The notes below the pieces were generated by a model that was not told where the DNA came from, ran no database searches, and was given only the letters and a program-made list of their open reading frames with translations. From IMG/VR virus record IMGVR_UViG_3300010165_000001, positions 32,001 through 96,000 of that record: 64,000 bases of DNA; one strand, given 5' to 3'. The stretch comes from a virus. Below, in pieces: positions 29,609-39,350 of this stretch; the stretch's first letter is position 1, and every line of letters starts with the position of its first letter. The position numbers were made by a program, and so were the translations under genes.

Positions 29609-32600
29609 TTAAATTTCTTGATATAAATGTTTCTGTTCTTCCACTTGACTAATTGCTTCTTTATATTGCTCTTCATTAATTTTCTTAGATTCAAAGTAAT
29701 CACTTAATTTATCTAATGCTAAATGATATTTAATGTATCCTTGATAGGATTTAAAAGTTTCTATCTCTTCTTCATCATATTCAACAGCATCATTATAGTT
29801 AAATCCTATTTCCATATCTGCATCTATAGGGTATCTTATCTTTTCTCCTTTATAGTCTACAAATAAGAAATCAAAAGGTAAATTCTCCATACAAGTAAGA
29901 ATAACTTTAGACATTGTTTTAACTTCTTCTGGAGGGCAATCTACAACTATACTATCATGTACTGTAGCTACTAATTTACTTCTCATATTTCTTGTTTGAA
30001 TATATTCATCTATATATGTTATTGCCATATTAGTAAAGTAAGCTCCCCCACCTTGAATAACTGTATTAAATGATTGTCTTAAAGCTTCATTCTTTTTCTT
30101 TCTATCTGTACTTTGAGCATCTGCTAAAAATCTTCTATGTCCATTCATTGTTTCTACATAACCATTTTCCTGAACAAAATTATGAACATCATCTATAGAT
30201 TGTTTAACTTTAGGTTTAGTAGCATAATATTTATTAAATATATCTTCTGCTTCATCTACAGTCATATTATTTTTCCCTGCAAACGATTGCGGTGTTTCCC
30301 CATAAGCTAAACCGAAGTTAACAGCTTTACTAGCTTGTCTTTCTTCTTTAGTTACTTCATCTACAGGTTTTTTATACATAATACTTGCAGTAGCTTTATG
30401 AATATCTTCCCCATTTAAAAATGACTCTAACATATTTTCATCTTTAGTATATAGTCCTATAACCCTCATTTCAAGAGAACTATAGTCTGCCATTAGATAA
30501 ATACCATCTTTAAATCTAGATGTATAAGAACGTTTAATTGGGTGCCAATAATCAAAATCACTAACGTTATTTGTATGTGCAGGTTGGTTTTGAAGATTCG
30601 GATTATTACTTGAAAGTCTAGAAGAGGCAGTACCTGTTTCGTTAAAGTTACCATGAACATTACCTGTCTGAGGATTAACTATTTTAGGTAACTTCTTAGT
30701 GAAACTATTTCTCTTAGTTTGAAGACTTGCATAATACTGTAATAATTCAACAAACTCTTTTGTACCTTCATTTACATCTAATTCACCTAAAATATATTTT
30801 AAAGCATTTTTATCAGTTTTATAGTCTGACCAAGATAATTCACTTTCTGGAATATTTGCATTGAAAGGTTTATCTTTTACATACTGTTTGTCATAAGGTA
30901 AATGTAATCCTAAAATATCGTAAAGTATTTCACCTTTATGTTCTCCTGAGCTTGGACTAAACTTCCATCCTCCATCTTTAAACTTAGTTCTATATTCAGC
31001 TAACTCTTTATCTCTATCTTTAGGTGGTTTATTCTCAAATTCTTCTAAACCTTTTTCAAAGAGATTATATCTTATTTCTTCAAACTCAAGTACCGCCCAA
31101 TGTTTTCTCATTTCTTCGTGAGTCTTTTCCATTTCTTCTCTATAAGCCTTATCATTATTTTCCATATAGTCTAGGTCTGTATGGAACCCATTACTTTGTA
31201 TTCTGGCTAATGTTCTTGTTAGTCTTGGGTAATCTTCCTTTAGAAGCCTAAGAACTTTAGGTCTATCTTGCTTCTCTAACTTTCTTAATACTTCACAATA
31301 AATTCTTCGACAAACATCAACGTCTCCACTAGCGTAAGGGTGCATTAGTTCTACAGGGAACCAATCATAACTAAATTTACCTCCATCTACTTCATTAATA
31401 ACATTCTTCTGTTCTCTGAATTTATTAATTAAGTTAATAGCTGTAGTTATTGTGTATTCCTTACCTTTATCAGATAAGTTCATATACTCTTCTGATTCTT
31501 CTAACACATTTTGATTAATGTGTTCTTTTGTTACAACTTCTGGGTTAAGATTTAAGTTAGTGTATTGTTCTTCTAAATCTTTAGTGAAATCAATATTGTC
31601 TTCTATCCACTTCTTATACTCATTCGCTTTAATGCCATATTCTTTTTTAGCTATCTTCTTGTTTTCTTTCTGTATCTCTTTCATTTCTTTATCTAATTCT
31701 TTTAAGAGTTTTGTAATAAACCATACTTTAAAGTTTTCTAATGGCTCATCATACCCTCCCATATCAGTGGCTTCATAAGCTAAATTTGTAAGCCTTAAAG
31801 ACTCACTTGCTTCTTGAGATACTGCTAAATACCAACCTACCTTAGTATCTTCATTACTTTCAAAATCTGTAAATCCTTCAGTAGTCATAAGGAAGTTAAT
31901 ATCATATCTACCGTTATGAAGGACTTTTACATCTTGATTATTAGCTAACCATTCTTTCATTAAACTTAACACTTCATCAATATCTTGTTGTCCATTAGCC
32001 CACTCAAAATCTGATTTGTATAAAGGTATTGTTACTCCTTGACCATTCTTCCAACTTAGAGATGTTACTAGAGCTTTACTTCCTTCTAAGTCTGGTCTTA
32101 ATGAATTGGTTTCTAAATCCCATGCAGTTATATCTACACCATCATTCTCATCTTGTTTAACTTCTTTAGTAAATATTTCTCTTACTCTTTCAATATTATC
32201 TACAAACTCATATTTAACTTCTTTAGGTTTAAAGACTTCTTCACCGTTTTGTACGTATCTTTCTAATATGTCCATATCAGCTAAGACTTGTCTTTCACTG
32301 TTTTTATTTACATTTGTGTATTCAATACTGTATGTTGGTAGTACCCAAGTAGAAACTTCCCCTATATCTATCTTTTTAGGAACCCCTCTAACAGAACCTA
32401 ACTTAGTTACATTCAATAACATCTTAATACCTAATTTACCTGTAGGTACTATAATATCTGGTTTAATTTCTTCTATTCTAGCTTTAAGTTCTTCCATGAA
32501 AGGTTTAGCTTCTGTTAGCTTTACATCTTCATATTTGATAACCTTACCATAGTTATTGTAAATAGGTTGAGGAATTTGATTATATACATAGTCAAATACA

Positions 32601-32752
32601 TAGTCTTTACGTTGTCCATCTCTTCTTAAACTTGTTGTTGATTCTATAACTTGTTTAAATGTTTTACCATTCTGTGTTTGCAAGTATTTCCAATGTCCAT
32701 TATTGTCGTAATGGTCTATTCTAATAAAGTCTAATAAAAATAAAACTTTCAT
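29609..32752 (-). CDS. family A DNA polymerase with 3'-5' exonuclease and N-terminal UDG-like domain (1047 aa)
   Basis: Exo motifs DITAWDLETNSL, HNGRYDINFL and YASGDVDV. Pol motif A is LMADYSSLEMRV, motif B is RQASKAVNFGLAYG and motif C is VATVHDSIVVD. Confidence 0.95.
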   Translation of the reverse strand: MKVLFLLDFIRIDHYDNNGHWKYLQTQNGKTFKQVIESTTSLRRDGQRKDYVFDYVYNQIPQPIYNNYGKVIKYEDVKLTEAKPFMEELKARIEEIKPDIIVPTGKLGIKMLLNVTKLGSVRGVPKKIDIGEVSTWVLPTYSIEYTNVNKNSERQVLADMDILERYVQNGEEVFKPKEVKYEFVDNIERVREIFTKEVKQDENDGVDITAWDLETNSLRPDLEGSKALVTSLSWKNGQGVTIPLYKSDFEWANGQQDIDEVLSLMKEWLANNQDVKVLHNGRYDINFLMTTEGFTDFESNEDTKVGWYLAVSQEASESLRLTNLAYEATDMGGYDEPLENFKVWFITKLLKELDKEMKEIQKENKKIAKKEYGIKANEYKKWIEDNIDFTKDLEEQYTNLNLNPEVVTKEHINQNVLEESEEYMNLSDKGKEYTITTAINLINKFREQKNVINEVDGGKFSYDWFPVELMHPYASGDVDVCRRIYCEVLRKLEKQDRPKVLRLLKEDYPRLTRTLARIQSNGFHTDLDYMENNDKAYREEMEKTHEEMRKHWAVLEFEEIRYNLFEKGLEEFENKPPKDRDKELAEYRTKFKDGGWKFSPSSGEHKGEILYDILGLHLPYDKQYVKDKPFNANIPESELSWSDYKTDKNALKYILGELDVNEGTKEFVELLQYYASLQTKRNSFTKKLPKIVNPQTGNVHGNFNETGTASSRLSSNNPNLQNQPAHTNNVSDFDYWHPIKRSYTSRFKDGIYLMADYSSLEMRVIGLYTKDENMLESFLNGEDIHKATASIMYKKPVDEVTKEERQASKAVNFGLAYGETPQSFAGKNNMTVDEAEDIFNKYYATKPKVKQSIDDVHNFVQENGYVETMNGHRRFLADAQSTDRKKKNEALRQSFNTVIQGGGAYFTNMAITYIDEYIQTRNMRSKLVATVHDSIVVDCPPEEVKTMSKVILTCMENLPFDFLFVDYKGEKIRYPIDADMEIGFNYNDAVEYDEEEIETFKSYQGYIKYHLALDKLSDYFESKKINEEQYKEAISQVEEQKHLYQEI

Positions 32753-33024
32753 TATCTCACCTCAATATCTACAGTATCATGGTCTGACCAAGTGTCTAAC
32801 TTAACATTAGTTTCTACCTCTATATCAGATAAAACATCCTCTATACCTTTATAAATATCCTCTGAGAGTTCATCTTTATCAATAACACCTTTATTAAAAG
32901 CTTCTGCTATCACAACTTCAATAATAGTTTTAAATTCTATCTCGTTAATCATAACCTCCTTATCAACTTTTAGATGTCTAAATAAATCATAGTTCTCAAA
33001 TAAATCTCTAATTGTAATTTTCAT
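32752..33024 (-). CDS. small acidic protein (90 aa)
   Basis: AAAGGAGAGG RBS with ATGA-type coupling to the polymerase gene. Confidence 0.65.
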   Translation of the reverse strand: MKITIRDLFENYDLFRHLKVDKEVMINEIEFKTIIEVVIAEAFNKGVIDKDELSEDIYKGIEDVLSDIEVETNVKLDTWSDHDTVDIEVR

Positions 33025-34138: not shown

Positions 34139-34187
34139 AAAAAACACCACTACCCTGTTACATATATTATAACATAAGTAGTGGTGT
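34139..34187 (-). terminator. long-loop hairpin terminator
   Basis: ACACCACTAC ... GTAGTGGTGT (10 bp) with inner TGTTA/TAACA pairing, then T6. Confidence 0.6.
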
Positions 34188-34200: not shown

Positions 34201-34593
34201 TTAGCTTAAACTAATTCCTAAGTCTTTTACTAAAGCATCCATTTTATTAATACCTTCTGTAGGTTCTTTTATTTCTTTTTGAGAAACTAGTTCTCCATCT
34301 TTAAAACCTAATAGTGTAGGTACTTCTTTAATATCAAAATACTTTTCTACAGTTTCTTTTCCTTCTTTAGCTTGGTCTGTATTTAAGTTAACTGAGTGAA
34401 TATCTAATTGTAAGGCATCTATATAACTTCCAATACCAAACTCTAACATAGAACAAAAACCACAATTATCTTCACTAATCATTACTAATAACTTATCATT
34501 AGTTCCAGCTAAAGTTTCTAATTCTACTAAACTTTCTACTTGTTCAATCTTTTTAGGCTCCATAATAATCTCCTTTATTGTTAAGCTTCGCAA
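34201..34593 (-). CDS. thioredoxin-fold protein, CGFC active site (130 aa)
   Basis: ..LLVMISEDNCGFCSML.. then ..EVPTLLGFKDGE.. (cis-Pro region). Overlaps the nrdA end by 13 nt. Confidence 0.6.
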   Translation of the reverse strand: MRSLTIKEIIMEPKKIEQVESLVELETLAGTNDKLLVMISEDNCGFCSMLEFGIGSYIDALQLDIHSVNLNTDQAKEGKETVEKYFDIKEVPTLLGFKDGELVSQKEIKEPTEGINKMDALVKDLGISLS

Positions 34594-36263
34594 TTAATAC
34601 ATAGTTTTGATAGGTTGAATTGTTGTGCTGCATTAGTACCATGTTGGTAATATAATGATTTAATTCCATTAGCCCAAGCAAATAGGTATAATTCATTTAA
34701 TTCTTCAGAAGTAACATTAGTAGGATTAACCATAATATTTAGAGATTGTCCTTGGTCAATATAATATTGTCTTGTTGCTGCTTGGTCTAAAATATTATAT
34801 TGGTTGATTTCTCCATAAGTCTTGAATACTTCTTTTTCTGTTTGGTTTAGGAAATCTAAGTGTTGAACAGAACCATCAGTATCTCTAATACTTTCCATTA
34901 CTTCTTTTGTGTCCTTACCTTTTTCTTGTAATAATTCTTTTAGATAAGGGTTAATCATAGTTTTTTTAACTTTAGCAGTATCAACAACATAGTAGTTACT
35001 CATGAAAGGTTCTATTGATTTAGAAACTTGTCCAAGAATGAATGAACTTGAAGTTGTTGGAGCTACAGCGAGTAACGTTGTGTTACGTCTACCATACCCT
35101 TTTAGAATTTCTGGTTCTCCTAATAAGTTTGCTAATTCTTCACTTGCTTTATATGCACGTTTTCTTATTAAAGCAAATATTTGTGAATTTAATCTACTTG
35201 CCTCCACACTTTCAAAAGGAATAAGTTTAGATTGTAAGTATGAGTGCCAACCTAACACACCTAAACCTAAGGCACGATTTTCTTTAGCAAAGTTGTAAGC
35301 ACGCTCCATTAATTTAAAAGCTTCTACTTCTTCTCTATCTCGTGAATCTCTCATTAATTCTAGGTCTGAAATAAACTCACTCATTACTGCATCTAAGAAA
35401 TAAATCATTGTTTCTACTGCATCAGTGTCTTTCCATTCTTCATATTTAACTAAGTTCATACTAGATAAGTCACAAACAAATGACCAATCTTCTTTATTAG
35501 GTAACATTATCTCTGAACATAAGTTTGAGTTGTTAATTAATAATCCTTTATCTTTATAAACATCTACCGTATTTTTATTAGCATTAGTATGGAAGAATAT
35601 ATAAGGGAAACCTAGTTGAGTTCTACGTGTAAGTACTTTAGACCATATTCTACGTTTCTCTGTATCACCATTAATCATCTCTAACATCCAGTCATCTGTA
35701 ATAGATACTGCATGTGTCATGTTTTGGATTGGGTTACCTTCTGTACCTATTTCTAAAAATTCATCAATATCAGGGTGGTCAATAGGTAAGTAAGGACTAA
35801 AACGTCCTCTACGTGTGTTTCCCTGAGATACTACATCTGTTTCTGTTTCAAATAATTTCATAAAATGTACAGAACCACTTGTTTCACCATTATCAGTGAT
35901 TTTAGCACCTCTAGGTCTTATTTCACCAAAGTAACCGCTAGTACCTCCTCCATACTTACTCATTATTCCTACTTCACTGGCAGAGTTTAAAATACTTGGT
36001 ATGTTATCTTCAACATAACTACCAAAACAACTTATACTTAATCCTTTACCTTTACCAAAGTTAGCCCATACAGGACTTGATAAGGAATAAAAACCTCTAC
36101 CCATGTAATCATAAAATTTATCTGAAAAGCCTTCGATACCTAAAATATCTTCGGCTTTATCTGCTATATCTTTAATTCGTTGTTCAGGTGTCTCACCCTC
36201 ACTTAAGTACCCTCTTTCTAAGAATACTCGTGAATCTGTGTTTAACCATTCAAAGTTTGCCAA
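34581..36263 (-). CDS. nrdA: class I ribonucleotide reductase alpha subunit without ATP-cone (560 aa)
   Basis: LSISCFG, NNSNLCSEIMLP (N-x-C-x-E), VCDLSSMNL, KSLYYQH (YY pair) and a C-terminal CINCEA redox tail. Confidence 0.9.
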   Translation of the reverse strand: MANFEWLNTDSRVFLERGYLSEGETPEQRIKDIADKAEDILGIEGFSDKFYDYMGRGFYSLSSPVWANFGKGKGLSISCFGSYVEDNIPSILNSASEVGIMSKYGGGTSGYFGEIRPRGAKITDNGETSGSVHFMKLFETETDVVSQGNTRRGRFSPYLPIDHPDIDEFLEIGTEGNPIQNMTHAVSITDDWMLEMINGDTEKRRIWSKVLTRRTQLGFPYIFFHTNANKNTVDVYKDKGLLINNSNLCSEIMLPNKEDWSFVCDLSSMNLVKYEEWKDTDAVETMIYFLDAVMSEFISDLELMRDSRDREEVEAFKLMERAYNFAKENRALGLGVLGWHSYLQSKLIPFESVEASRLNSQIFALIRKRAYKASEELANLLGEPEILKGYGRRNTTLLAVAPTTSSSFILGQVSKSIEPFMSNYYVVDTAKVKKTMINPYLKELLQEKGKDTKEVMESIRDTDGSVQHLDFLNQTEKEVFKTYGEINQYNILDQAATRQYYIDQGQSLNIMVNPTNVTSEELNELYLFAWANGIKSLYYQHGTNAAQQFNLSKLCINCEA

Positions 36264-36279
36264 TATCTATTCTCCTCCA

Positions 36280-37629
36280 TTAATTACCTAGTGTTAACAT
36301 TCTCATTCTTAAAATCTCATTAACCTTGTCTTTAGACAGTTTTTCTTCATTTTCCTCAAACTCTGAATTAGATGAGAATAGTGTATCTTCTGTTACTGTA
36401 TTTGTAAATTTAGTATAGTTAACAGAACGTTTAGATAAGAAATCCGTTAGTTTCGTACTAATAACTTCATCATCAAACCATGCTGTTTCTGCTAACACTT
36501 CTTCATCAATTTTAAATAATTTTTCAAATCCGATTGATTCTAAAGAATTGTTTAATCTGTTTTTAATAAATTCTTTTACAGTACGCTTAGGTAAGAACTC
36601 TAACTCACCGTCTTCATATAACCAGTCTAAAACTTTTTTCTCTGTTTCATATGAATGTTCGCATGCTTCATATACTGTACGTTTCATTTCCCCATCGAAC
36701 CATTCAGGATGTTCTCCTCTTAAGATATTAATAATTTCAATACCAAATAGACCATGAATTTGTTCTTCTTTAGATGTAGCCTCAATAGCATTAGATAACC
36801 CTCTGAATAGGTTCTTATGTTTATTGAAACTCATCATGATTAAGAATTGACTGAATAATGATACATGCTCAATAAATAGTGAGAATAGTAATACTGACAG
36901 TACATAGTCTCTATTATCTTCACTCTTACTTAATTTAGTGTGCATAGTAAGCTCATCTACACGCTCTCTTAATGCAGGTATATCGTCTATATGTTTAAAT
37001 TCTTCATTTAATCCTAACAATTCTAGTAGGTGAGAGTAAGCATCAGCATGTCTAACTTCTGATTCTGAGAACGTTGCACCAACTGCACCTGTTTCCCATT
37101 TAGGCATACGATGATATAGGTCACCCCAAAATGTTTTAACAGCAACTTCAACTTGTGCAATAGCTAACATAGCATTTTTAATTGCAGTTCGTTCGTGAGG
37201 TTTAACATTTTGTTTAAAGTCTTGAATATCACTTGTATAATTAAATTCGGTATGAATCCAATAACTGTTTCTAATAGCATCTGCATATTCTAGTAATTCA
37301 GGGTATTCATAAGGTTTTAATTCTTTTCTTGGTTTAAATATATCTCGTCTACGTTCTCTATCTCTTTTGTCTCTATACAAAATAAAAGCCTTAGCAGTAT
37401 CTTTATACTTACTACCAAGCAATACTTCTTCCACTGTATCTTGAACACACTCTACTGTAAGTGTCTCTTCTTTTTCTTCTAATAGACTATCTACATCTTC
37501 TACTAAAGTATCGATATTATCTTCCAAGAACTCATTCGTTTCTGTATTAGCTCTTAGGATAGCATTTGTTATTTTATTTAGGTCATACTCCACAACAGAC
37601 CCGTCACGTTTCTTAATTTGCGTAATCAA
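36280..37629 (-). CDS. nrdB: ribonucleotide reductase beta subunit with N-terminal ATP-cone (449 aa)
   Basis: Residues 1 to about 92 read IKKRDGSVVEYDLNKITNAILRA ... AFILYRDKRD, which is an ATP-cone. The rest is a ferritin-like R2 with QVE, SEVRHADAY (ExxH..Y), FIEH and KEEQIHG. Confidence 0.9.
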   Translation of the reverse strand: MITQIKKRDGSVVEYDLNKITNAILRANTETNEFLEDNIDTLVEDVDSLLEEKEETLTVECVQDTVEEVLLGSKYKDTAKAFILYRDKRDRERRRDIFKPRKELKPYEYPELLEYADAIRNSYWIHTEFNYTSDIQDFKQNVKPHERTAIKNAMLAIAQVEVAVKTFWGDLYHRMPKWETGAVGATFSESEVRHADAYSHLLELLGLNEEFKHIDDIPALRERVDELTMHTKLSKSEDNRDYVLSVLLFSLFIEHVSLFSQFLIMMSFNKHKNLFRGLSNAIEATSKEEQIHGLFGIEIINILRGEHPEWFDGEMKRTVYEACEHSYETEKKVLDWLYEDGELEFLPKRTVKEFIKNRLNNSLESIGFEKLFKIDEEVLAETAWFDDEVISTKLTDFLSKRSVNYTKFTNTVTEDTLFSSNSEFEENEEKLSKDKVNEILRMRMLTLGN

Positions 37630-37644
37630 TCAAATATCCCCTTT

Positions 37645-37956
37645 TTATTTATGTTTTTCAATCATTTCCTCAATTTTTTCTTTAGGTGCAAAACCATTAA
37701 TACTATCTACTTTTTCTCCATCTTTGTATAGTATCAATGTAGGAATACTCATAACTCCAAGATTTGAAGATACATCAGGTTCTTCATCAATATTAACTTT
37801 AAGAACATCCAGGTCATTAGATTCTTCACCGATAGCTTCTACAGAAGGCATAACCATTTTACATACACTACACCAAGGTGCCCATAAATCAACTAGGTTT
37901 AACCCTTCTTTTGTTTTATTATCAAAATCTTTTGTTTCTATATCAATTACTGCCAT
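37645..37956 (-). CDS. thioredoxin (103 aa), WCSVC active site
   Basis: LVDLWAPWCSVCKMV and ..MSIPTLILYKDGE.. are canonical Trx landmarks. Confidence 0.85.
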   Translation of the reverse strand: MAVIDIETKDFDNKTKEGLNLVDLWAPWCSVCKMVMPSVEAIGEESNDLDVLKVNIDEEPDVSSNLGVMSIPTLILYKDGEKVDSINGFAPKEKIEEMIEKHK

Positions 37957-37971
37957 TATTAAACATTCTCC

Positions 37972-39321: not shown

Positions 39322-39350
39322 ATTATACCACAATATCTTGTATTTAACAA
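39322..39350 (-). promoter_or_regulatory. sigma-A promoter (extended -10)
   Basis: TTGTTA (39350..39345), 17 nt, TGg-TATAAT (39327..39322). Confidence 0.6.

Follow-up and report, generated by a model that had tools for sequence, protein, structure and literature searches.

The 64-kb stretch of viral DNA analysed here (the window; positions 32,001 to 96,000 of IMG/VR record IMGVR_UViG_3300010165_000001) comes from a Staphylococcus myovirus, and its minus strand carries, at 34201-37956, four co-directional genes built around a ribonucleotide reductase (RNR): a thioredoxin gene (trx), an ATP-cone::nrdB fusion for the radical-generating (beta) subunit, a cone-less nrdA for the catalytic (alpha) subunit and a thioredoxin-like gene, Tio. 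At the DNA level the block shares 98.4% identity with its counterpart in the GenBank phage vB_SurM-PSU4 (PSU4; Herelleviridae, Twortvirinae, Baoshanvirus). We consider it highly probable that these genes provide a complete class Id (NrdAi/NrdBi) RNR whose beta subunit bears a deoxyadenosine triphosphate (dATP) switch like that of Leeuwenhoekiella blandensis, that is reduced by thioredoxin and that forms an exchangeable module. A first-pass annotation of this DNA had placed the four open reading frames (ORFs) at the same minus-strand positions and in the same order, trx-nrdB-nrdA-Tio, and both hold.

The nrdB gene (36280-37629) encodes 449 amino acids (aa). Residues 4-91 (37357-37620) match the ATP-cone profile PF03477 over positions 2-88 of its 88 (E-value 6e-20, 72 bits against a cutoff of 25.8), so that the N-terminus fits the cone model within the interval of about 37354-37629 that had been proposed for it. 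A ferritin-like R2 core containing the dimetal site (PF00268, E-value 5e-56; residues 102-375, 36505-37326) follows in one unbroken frame, with neither stop nor frameshift between the two. That the fusion might be an artefact (a sequencing frameshift or a pseudogene) is practically inconceivable given this continuous frame, the strong conservation of its functional residues and the recurrence of the full-length architecture elsewhere: at least 569 bacterial loci have it (in a scan of one genome per species), as do about 65 independent phage records and metagenomic contigs by the dozen. The best solved relative is the L. blandensis NrdB (5OLK; E-value 4e-158 over residues 2-418), to which the phage protein is 60% identical as a whole, the cone reaching 45% and the R2 core 65%. 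Further matches were obtained to 6SF4 (2e-141) and to the cone-less class Id beta subunits 8DQ3 (6e-117) and 6CWO (6e-95).

At the level of individual residues the correspondence is complete for the metal site. The ligands E161, E191, H194, E254, E288 and H292 are identical to E170, E200, H203, E263, E297 and H301 of L. blandensis, and they lie in the motifs QVE (E161), ESEVRHADAY (E191 and H194, together with Y198), FIEH (E254) and EEQIH (E288 and H292); the first-pass annotation had deduced a complete R2 from these motifs, and all of them coincide with the metal ligands of the solved homologue. The subclass is recognised by a lysine projecting to the metal site, a tryptophan on helix 1 and a tyrosine that is present but unbonded to the site, and the class Id residues K165, W168, Y198 and T285 are identical to K174, W177, Y207 and T294 of L. 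blandensis. The cone-cone interface of the latter enzyme involves D73, D76, M80, K89, I92, I93 and R95 (PMC5794259; PMC8350387). Its phage equivalents (D64, E67, L71, K80, I83, L84 and R86) are all identical or conservative, the M-to-L and I-to-L changes preserving the hydrophobic core. Among 44 homologues the cone residues K7, R8, K19, D64, E67, Y85 and R86 are invariant; the pathway tyrosine in NYTKF and an internal DTLF are also kept, with Y405 and F418 invariant in the same set. An AlphaFold2 model of NrdB (mean predicted local distance difference test, pLDDT, 78.8) folds the cone as a beta-hairpin plus four helices (pLDDT 76-91) and superimposes, cone included, on 5OLK with a target-normalised TM-score of 0.86-0.91, the range over the four solved NrdBi structures named above being 0.86-0.97. 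Judged from its sequence, NrdB is a class Id NrdBi subunit with a full N-terminal ATP-cone.

The partner gene nrdA (34581-36263) encodes 560 aa that score 737 bits (E-value 1e-221) against the model TIGR02510 ('NrdE-prime'), well above its cutoff of 602. Among solved class Id alpha subunits it matches 6DQX (1e-211), which we take to be the Actinobacillus ureae protein, and 6DQW (1e-182). The catalytic landmarks NLCSE, SCFGSY, FVCDLSSMNL, the YY pair (LYYQ) and the C-terminal CINC (CINCEA) are all aligned with 6DQX. NrdA gave no match to PF03477, as the first-pass annotation had claimed, and a cone encoded by an upstream exon finds no room, since the protein aligns from residue 3 with the cone-less 6DQX and its start lies only 16 nucleotides (nt) past the nrdB stop. 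The assignment of the pair to class Id (NrdAi/NrdBi) thus rests on a beta subunit 60% identical to 5OLK, on the conserved key residues and on an alpha subunit above the NrdAi cutoff.

The phage alpha also has a 12-residue insertion (residues 296-311 approximately, about 35331-35378, within ...LELMRDSRDREEVEAF...) that is absent from 6DQX. It occurs in 76 of the 77 aligned alpha subunits, all the bacterial ones included, the exception being the intron-split gene of Romulus. The 6DQX alpha differs in this from the phage alpha and the other full-length alphas, which are paired with a cone-bearing or NrdBi beta, and the insertion may correlate with the presence of a cone on the beta subunit. The idea that it co-varies with a C-terminal extension of beta (see below) was discarded, the insertion being found also in bacterial alphas whose beta partners end in DDLF tails.

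Both genes are interrupted in some relatives. A 326-aa intein (CYIEGTEILTPNGW...VLIAGN, with Cys at +1) interrupts the ExxH metal-ligand motif after E191 and before position 192 in metagenomic alleles that otherwise hardly differ from the window NrdB (contigs L011, 5001-7331, and L012, 540-2870, both with protein P0001; also proteins P0092 and P0101); the window allele is intein-free and has Val192. A non-canonical intein with Val at +1 was considered and rejected, as the junction reads ...IAGN|CRHADAY, with the canonical Cys. In the same clade, nrdA is split by GIY-YIG or HNH homing-endonuclease insertions in Silviavirus and several metagenomic phages (Romulus, L004 7354-11883; L010, L093, L095 and L096), the window nrdA being intact. 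The Baoshanvirus-type record Golestan101-M covers only 63% of the RNR block, in two pieces.

A way to picture how the phage enzyme could work is to transfer to it what is established for L. blandensis, in which dATP drives tetramerisation of beta, with two dATP bound per cone and with beta4, alpha2-beta4 and alpha4-beta4 complexes (PMC5794259; PMC8350387). By this analogy, the ATP-bound beta would be a dimer and would form the active alpha2-beta2 complex. When dATP accumulates it would bind the cone, and the cones would pair through their last two helices (3 and 4) to give beta4. This form would admit alpha only in a non-productive, quasi-symmetrical alpha4-beta4 assembly and would block the asymmetric complex required for radical transfer. 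A Mn2(III/IV) cofactor would serve as the oxidant; there would be no tyrosyl radical, and NrdI would not be needed. The C-terminal cysteines of NrdA would most likely be re-reduced by the upstream phage Trx, as suggested by adjacency and the kept CxxC, possibly with a contribution from Tio, and the electrons of both would ultimately come from the host thioredoxin reductase. Lastly, the block would be swapped, as a module, with the nrdI-nrdE-nrdF (class Ib) genes of sister phages by homologous recombination, for which the end of the resolvase gene and the 3' end of Tio would provide the conserved flanks.

Several points weigh against this explanation. Binding of dATP, tetramerisation, metal content and reductant are all extrapolated from a bacterial enzyme that is 60% identical (45% in the cone), and that enzyme lacks the conserved C-terminal extension of the phage clade, which could alter the alpha-beta interaction. 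The active site of the upstream Trx reads WCSVC and not the canonical WCGPC, both cysteines being kept, and Silviavirus (Romulus) has the same RNR without any trx upstream. Tio, in turn, accompanies class Ib cassettes as well and has lost its second cysteine in the phage SscM-1.

The extension just mentioned had gone unremarked in the first-pass annotation. In the window protein, NrdB runs 31 residues (419-449, SSNSEFEENEEKLSKDKVNEILRMRMLTLGN, 36283-36375) past the ...DTLF alpha-docking tail, an acidic linker being followed by KVNEILRMRML. The length is 26-31 residues across the clade and the consensus, SPxSE[FIL]E...KxKVNxxLR[ML]RM[LI]xL, is present in 81 of the 120 best database matches. The solved NrdBi structures, by contrast, all end at the docking tail ...DDLF ([DE]DLF or a near variant), L. 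blandensis among them, and so does NrdB in 77 of the 78 bacterial loci with a full-length call; the sole exception, a Lysinibacillus protein (L020), has an unrelated 11-residue tail. In a neighbour-joining tree the proteins with the extension group as a single clade, whose sister comprises the cone::NrdBi proteins that end in DDLF, and every member whose context was inspected sits among phage genes. AlphaFold2 places a helix at 433-447 (pLDDT 54-59), after a disordered tail and docked to nothing. An amphipathic reading of this helix was abandoned after its hydrophobic moment proved no higher than that of shuffled sequences (fraction equal to or above the observed value, 0.44).

Other origins or parallels for the extension were also considered and rejected. 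The tail motif is not common to the class Ib NrdF of sister phages, whose tails lack it and end in an ordinary acidic ...DEFL. An apparent flavobacterial extension (Flagellimonas matches reaching residue 447) was spurious, NrdB stopping at DDLF and the tblastn alignment having run into nrdA. Nosocomiicoccus was discarded as a bacterial source of the clade, since the chromosomal copy of N. ampullae (L010; CP079109.1, 1128917-1146251) lies among phage genes and is phage-derived. This is the only complete bacterial chromosome with an extension-clade NrdB. The surrounding region contains polA, Dam, HNH, DUF3310, nucleoside deoxyribosyltransferase and dUTPase genes, an HNH gene interrupts nrdA, and the whole resembles a prophage or what is left of an integrated phage.

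No mention of a C-terminal extension of NrdBi was found in the searchable literature, and as far as that literature shows it is an undescribed feature of the phage clade. One alternative to an L. blandensis-like switch is that the cone is present and activity control nevertheless differs by way of the extension, through auto-inhibition, altered stoichiometry or tethering. Its conservation (KVNxxLR[ML]RM) in a single clade and in phage-type contexts only would suit such a role, as would its position directly after the alpha-docking tail, which removes the free ...DLF carboxy-terminus of the other members; and cone behaviour already varies within NrdBi, one ATP and two dATP being reported to bind per cone in Facklamia ignava (PMC6187632, J Biol Chem 2018). 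We nevertheless regard this alternative as quite unlikely, because the interface of the cone is conserved, as are the segments close to the nucleotide, because beta keeps its internal DTLF and the NYTKF tyrosine, and because the extension, besides not being significantly amphipathic, is modelled at modest confidence and undocked. A wider proposal, that the phage cone::NrdBi proteins are a redoxin-linked clade in which the extension serves as a phage-specific second element of control or recruitment, is put forward tentatively and looks rather doubtful to us. The extension might gate the docking of the beta tail into alpha; it might recruit the phage thioredoxin to the holoenzyme, as a non-covalent counterpart of the glutaredoxin (Grx) fusion of F. 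ignava; or it might tether the RNR to the phage machinery of replication or of deoxynucleoside triphosphate (dNTP) synthesis.

The two redoxin-like genes have different standing in the L. blandensis-like, Trx-reduced enzyme that we favour. The upstream gene, trx (37645-37956; 103 aa), is the first of the exchanged block, and its product is a thioredoxin by both PF00085 (E-value 8.7e-24) and TIGR01068 (102.1 bits, cutoff 96.8). It is 60% identical to the trx found at the same position in SscM-1, whose motif is WCGSC; the N. ampullae element has CGPC. In the Baoshan-like and Sciuriunavirus-like lineages and in that of L098, the class Id block comes with an upstream Trx. All the examined phage contexts of the extension-clade RNR have a Trx- or Grx-like gene within a few kb, and the window trx lies 15 nt upstream of nrdB; in contrast, no Trx, Grx or NrdH gene was found within 4 kb of cone::nrdB at any of the 78 bacterial loci. 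A parallel in architecture, though not among the close matches, is the Grx::ATP-cone::NrdB of F. ignava (PMC6187632), a Firmicute protein of the same NrdBi subclass followed likewise by a cone-less NrdAi. Its order of redoxin, cone and R2 mirrors the phage order of trx and then cone::nrdB, the difference being that the F. ignava glutaredoxin is fused into the polypeptide and the phage thioredoxin-family protein comes from a separate gene: the trx stop codon (37645-37647) and a 15-nt spacer with a ribosome-binding site (RBS) precede nrdB, so that no covalent redoxin fusion exists.

Tio (34201-34563; 120 aa, CGFC) is a thioredoxin-like protein by a weak match to PF00085 (26.8 bits against a cutoff of 23.5), with a weak DUF6568/PedC-like match and without a match in PHROG. 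Homologues were found in 326 Staphylococcus myovirus records, class Ib carriers included, and Tio is a backbone gene of the staphylococcal Twortvirinae, with the 5' nine-tenths of it inside the exchanged block. The active site of the window protein is CGFC; BS2, K and Twort have CGKC, Romulus and C1C have CAKC, and SscM-1 has CAKS (L005 9398-9709). Such variation speaks against a redox function that depends strictly on a dithiol. The link of Tio to the RNR is weak, given the class Ib company and the cysteine loss in SscM-1. The first-pass annotation had described the RNR as bracketed by two thioredoxin-fold genes; both are there (WCSVC and CGFC), and the downstream one turns out to belong to the backbone shared by both RNR classes.

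The T7 DNA polymerase uses thioredoxin as its processivity factor. One or both of the thioredoxin-fold proteins may not be RNR reductants, Tio possibly being, in a similar manner, an accessory or processivity factor of the nearby family A DNA polymerase. The retention of Tio whatever the RNR class, its location three genes upstream of polA, its marginal thioredoxin score and DUF6568/PedC-like resemblance, the CAKS site of SscM-1 and the Silviavirus RNR without an upstream Trx all fit this alternative. It has to contend with the presence of a redoxin near the RNR in every examined phage context and at none of the approximately 78 bacterial loci, with a trx gene that moves inside the exchanged block, 15 nt from nrdB, and with the C-terminal CxxC kept in NrdA, which needs a redoxin. 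On balance we find it rather unlikely, and reduction of NrdA by the upstream Trx remains our preferred reading.

The exchangeable nature of the block becomes apparent when the locus is compared among relatives. In exactly the same slot, which lies between the PDDEXK resolvase and Tio, phage K, Twort, the Sepunavirus phiIPLA-C1C (C1C) and the Baoshanvirus phiSA_BS2 (BS2) carry nrdI-nrdE-nrdF, as the first-pass annotation had stated for Twort-like phages; in Romulus, SscM-1, PSU4 and the window the slot is taken by cone::nrdB-nrdA. BS2 and PSU4 belong to the same genus. The window and BS2 are 98% identical at the aa level in the primase, 95% in a 131-aa hypothetical protein (hyp131) and 97% in the resolvase; the RNR genes are then non-homologous and Tio is 49% identical, after which identity recovers to 96% in the 242-aa hypothetical protein (hyp242) and 99% in HU/IHF. 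The left junction falls in the resolvase-trx spacer (37957-37971): both DNAs are nearly identical through the resolvase stop and the RBS and diverge totally from the trx/nrdI start codon, blastn identity to BS2 resuming at 37961. The right junction lies in the 3' end of Tio (34230-34260), at about 34240 (alignment column 401), downstream of which the window is about 99% identical to BS2 and upstream of which similarity is patchy; the two Tio proteins have an identical C-terminal LDALVKDLGISLS. This leaves little doubt that a real, sharply bounded exchange of RNR modules, of some 3.7 kb, separates these phages.

Remnants of a class Ib cassette were not detected: tblastn found no NrdI or NrdF homologue in the 64-kb window, NrdE matches the window nrdA at only 25% identity and no NCBIfam model for class Ib comes near its cutoff. 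Both modules would serve the same role, the aerobic supply of dNTPs for the phage. They differ in that the class Ib cassette needs the NrdI flavodoxin, places alpha before beta and has a 704-aa alpha with an RNR_N domain. No PF03477 cone was found in the class Ib cassette, so that the swap adds or removes a full cone switch. The replacement of a cassette postulated in the first-pass annotation is therefore real, with sharp junctions, and the relocation of allosteric control that it was thought to bring about is not. Class Id RNRs are not known to need NrdI. On one extension-clade phage contig (L094, 5633-6046) an NrdI-like flavodoxin gene (PF07972) is located about 1 kb upstream of the class Id cone::nrdB-nrdA, and it may hint at a phage-supplied source of superoxide.

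Among the records with Baoshanvirus-type flanks, two are class Id (PSU4 and Golestan101-M) and six matched in the flanks only; by the pattern of BS2, the confirmed carrier, these six are presumably of class Ib type. The window, too, is mosaic: the RNR block matches PSU4 at 98-100% identity, but the DNA polymerase is closer to BS2 (97%) than to PSU4 (84%), and so is a 90-aa ORF, hyp90 (88% to BS2, 37% to PSU4; 29609-33024, compared with L001 and L009). Recombination between class Id and class Ib carriers is evidently ongoing. A search of the literature for the phage Ib/Id dichotomy or for Baoshanvirus RNRs retrieved nothing relevant.

Which of the two modules came first in this lineage is nearly an even question, in our view leaning slightly away from class Id as the older state, that is, from a scenario in which BS2-type phages gained class Ib and the window keeps the ancestral cassette. 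This scenario draws mainly on L097, a Baoshan-like metagenomic phage with a backbone 71-82% identical to the window, which carries trx-cone::nrdB-nrdA-Tio and is collinear with the window, at 78.6% nt identity across the region. Identity to the window is 94% for NrdB, 90% for NrdA, 76% for Tio and 53% for Trx, the value for Tio being a backbone-like divergence. If L097 is taken as the outgroup, one Id-to-Ib change is no less parsimonious than one in the opposite direction, and class Id also fills the slot in Silviavirus, Sciuriunavirus and the L098 lineage. The distribution of class Ib points the other way: it is the state in six out of eight records of Baoshanvirus type; class Ib-type genes also fill the slot in Kayvirus, Twortvirus, Sepunavirus and the outgroup Listeria phage P100; and the phages with class Id could branch from within those with class Ib.

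The first-pass annotation had also called the fusion rare, which it is not. Full-length cone::NrdB was found in the Staphylococcus phage records already counted, among them Silviavirus (Romulus, Remus, SA11 and Stau2; 79% identity) and Sciuriunavirus (SscM-1; 85%), and the bacterial loci, with 57-64% identity, include Flavobacteriaceae, Patescibacteria, Erysipelothrix, Clostridia and Lysinibacillus. The eLife article of 2018 in which the fusion was defined (PMC5794259) counts 93 NrdBi proteins in RefSeq that have a cone at the N-terminus, from viruses as well as bacteria. The fusion is thus a known and widespread subclass whose viral carriers were already listed in 2018. What does stand of the earlier claim is the subclass itself: the pair is NrdAi/NrdBi, 60% identical to an enzyme with dATP-driven tetramerisation of beta, and the interface is conserved. 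The order of beta before alpha, which had been singled out, is present and is the norm for the whole family, cone::nrdB preceding a cone-less nrdA in all 78 bacterial loci.

Compared with its bacterial relatives, the phage enzyme agrees with that of L. blandensis (5OLK; 6SF4/6SF5) in the order of its domains (cone, short linker, R2 core and flexible tail), in the cone-less alpha and in having nrdB before nrdA. It differs, apart from the extension, in belonging to a virulent Staphylococcus myovirus where it alternates with a class Ib cassette, and in being known from sequence, unlike the biochemically studied L. blandensis enzyme. The class Id enzymes of Flavobacterium johnsoniae, Actinobacillus ureae and Aggregatibacter actinomycetemcomitans (6CWO-6CWQ, 6DQW, 6DQX and 8DQ3) share the subclass and the metal site, with beta cores 45-55% identical to that of the phage, and have no ATP-cone. 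This is therefore not a new system, the enzyme type having been described and mechanistically dissected in 2018-2021. What is new is that the phage copies form one clade with a conserved extension, located at the most interaction-critical end of beta, and that, among the loci examined, only these copies have a redoxin gene nearby.

The exchange also provides a natural pair of closely related, tractable, therapy-type Staphylococcus myoviruses that differ essentially only in their RNR module. One member has class Ib (NrdI-dependent, with no full cone) and the other class Id (expected to be a superoxide-dependent dimanganese enzyme, with a dATP off-switch on beta), so that the effect of RNR type on phage fitness can be compared under metal limitation, oxidative stress or dNTP imbalance. 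In GenBank the genes of this class Id enzyme, those of PSU4 included, bear the label 'ribonucleotide reductase of class Ia (aerobic)' (records such as OL436245.1, LC557520.1 and NC_047767.1), and in one record the beta subunit is noted as having a predicted transmembrane domain. These annotations are inaccurate, and the "class Ia" labels call for correction.

Regarding the layout of the locus, the backbone runs from the primase through two hypothetical genes, the PDDEXK resolvase, the RNR block, Tio, the 242-aa hypothetical gene and HU/IHF to polA. Intergenic spacers within the RNR block measure 15-17 nt and a Shine-Dalgarno site precedes each gene: AGGAGA 10 nt before the ATG of trx, AAAGGGG before the TTG of nrdB, GGAGGAG before the TTG of nrdA and AAGGAG before the ATG of Tio. 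The Tio start is the ATG at 34563, as annotated in PSU4, which corrects a TTG at 34593 that overlaps nrdA. Past the 3' end of Tio, on the minus strand, CACCACTAC ... GTAGTGGTG followed by TTTTTT (34139-34186) would form a hairpin with a T-run, a putative terminator to judge by its make-up; in the phage K record a terminator is annotated at the equivalent position. A promoter-like TTGAAT-16-TATAAT (34193-34166) is embedded in this hairpin region. A strong sigma-70-like site is present on the minus strand at 39322-39350, where 17 nt separate TTGTTA from TATAAT and a TG extends the -10 element. It falls after the primase gene and before the first small ORF that precedes the resolvase, and it may be the promoter of a transcription unit that includes the RNR block. 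Farther downstream, polA is a single 1047-aa ORF in the window, while in BS2 and phage K it is split by intervening sequences.

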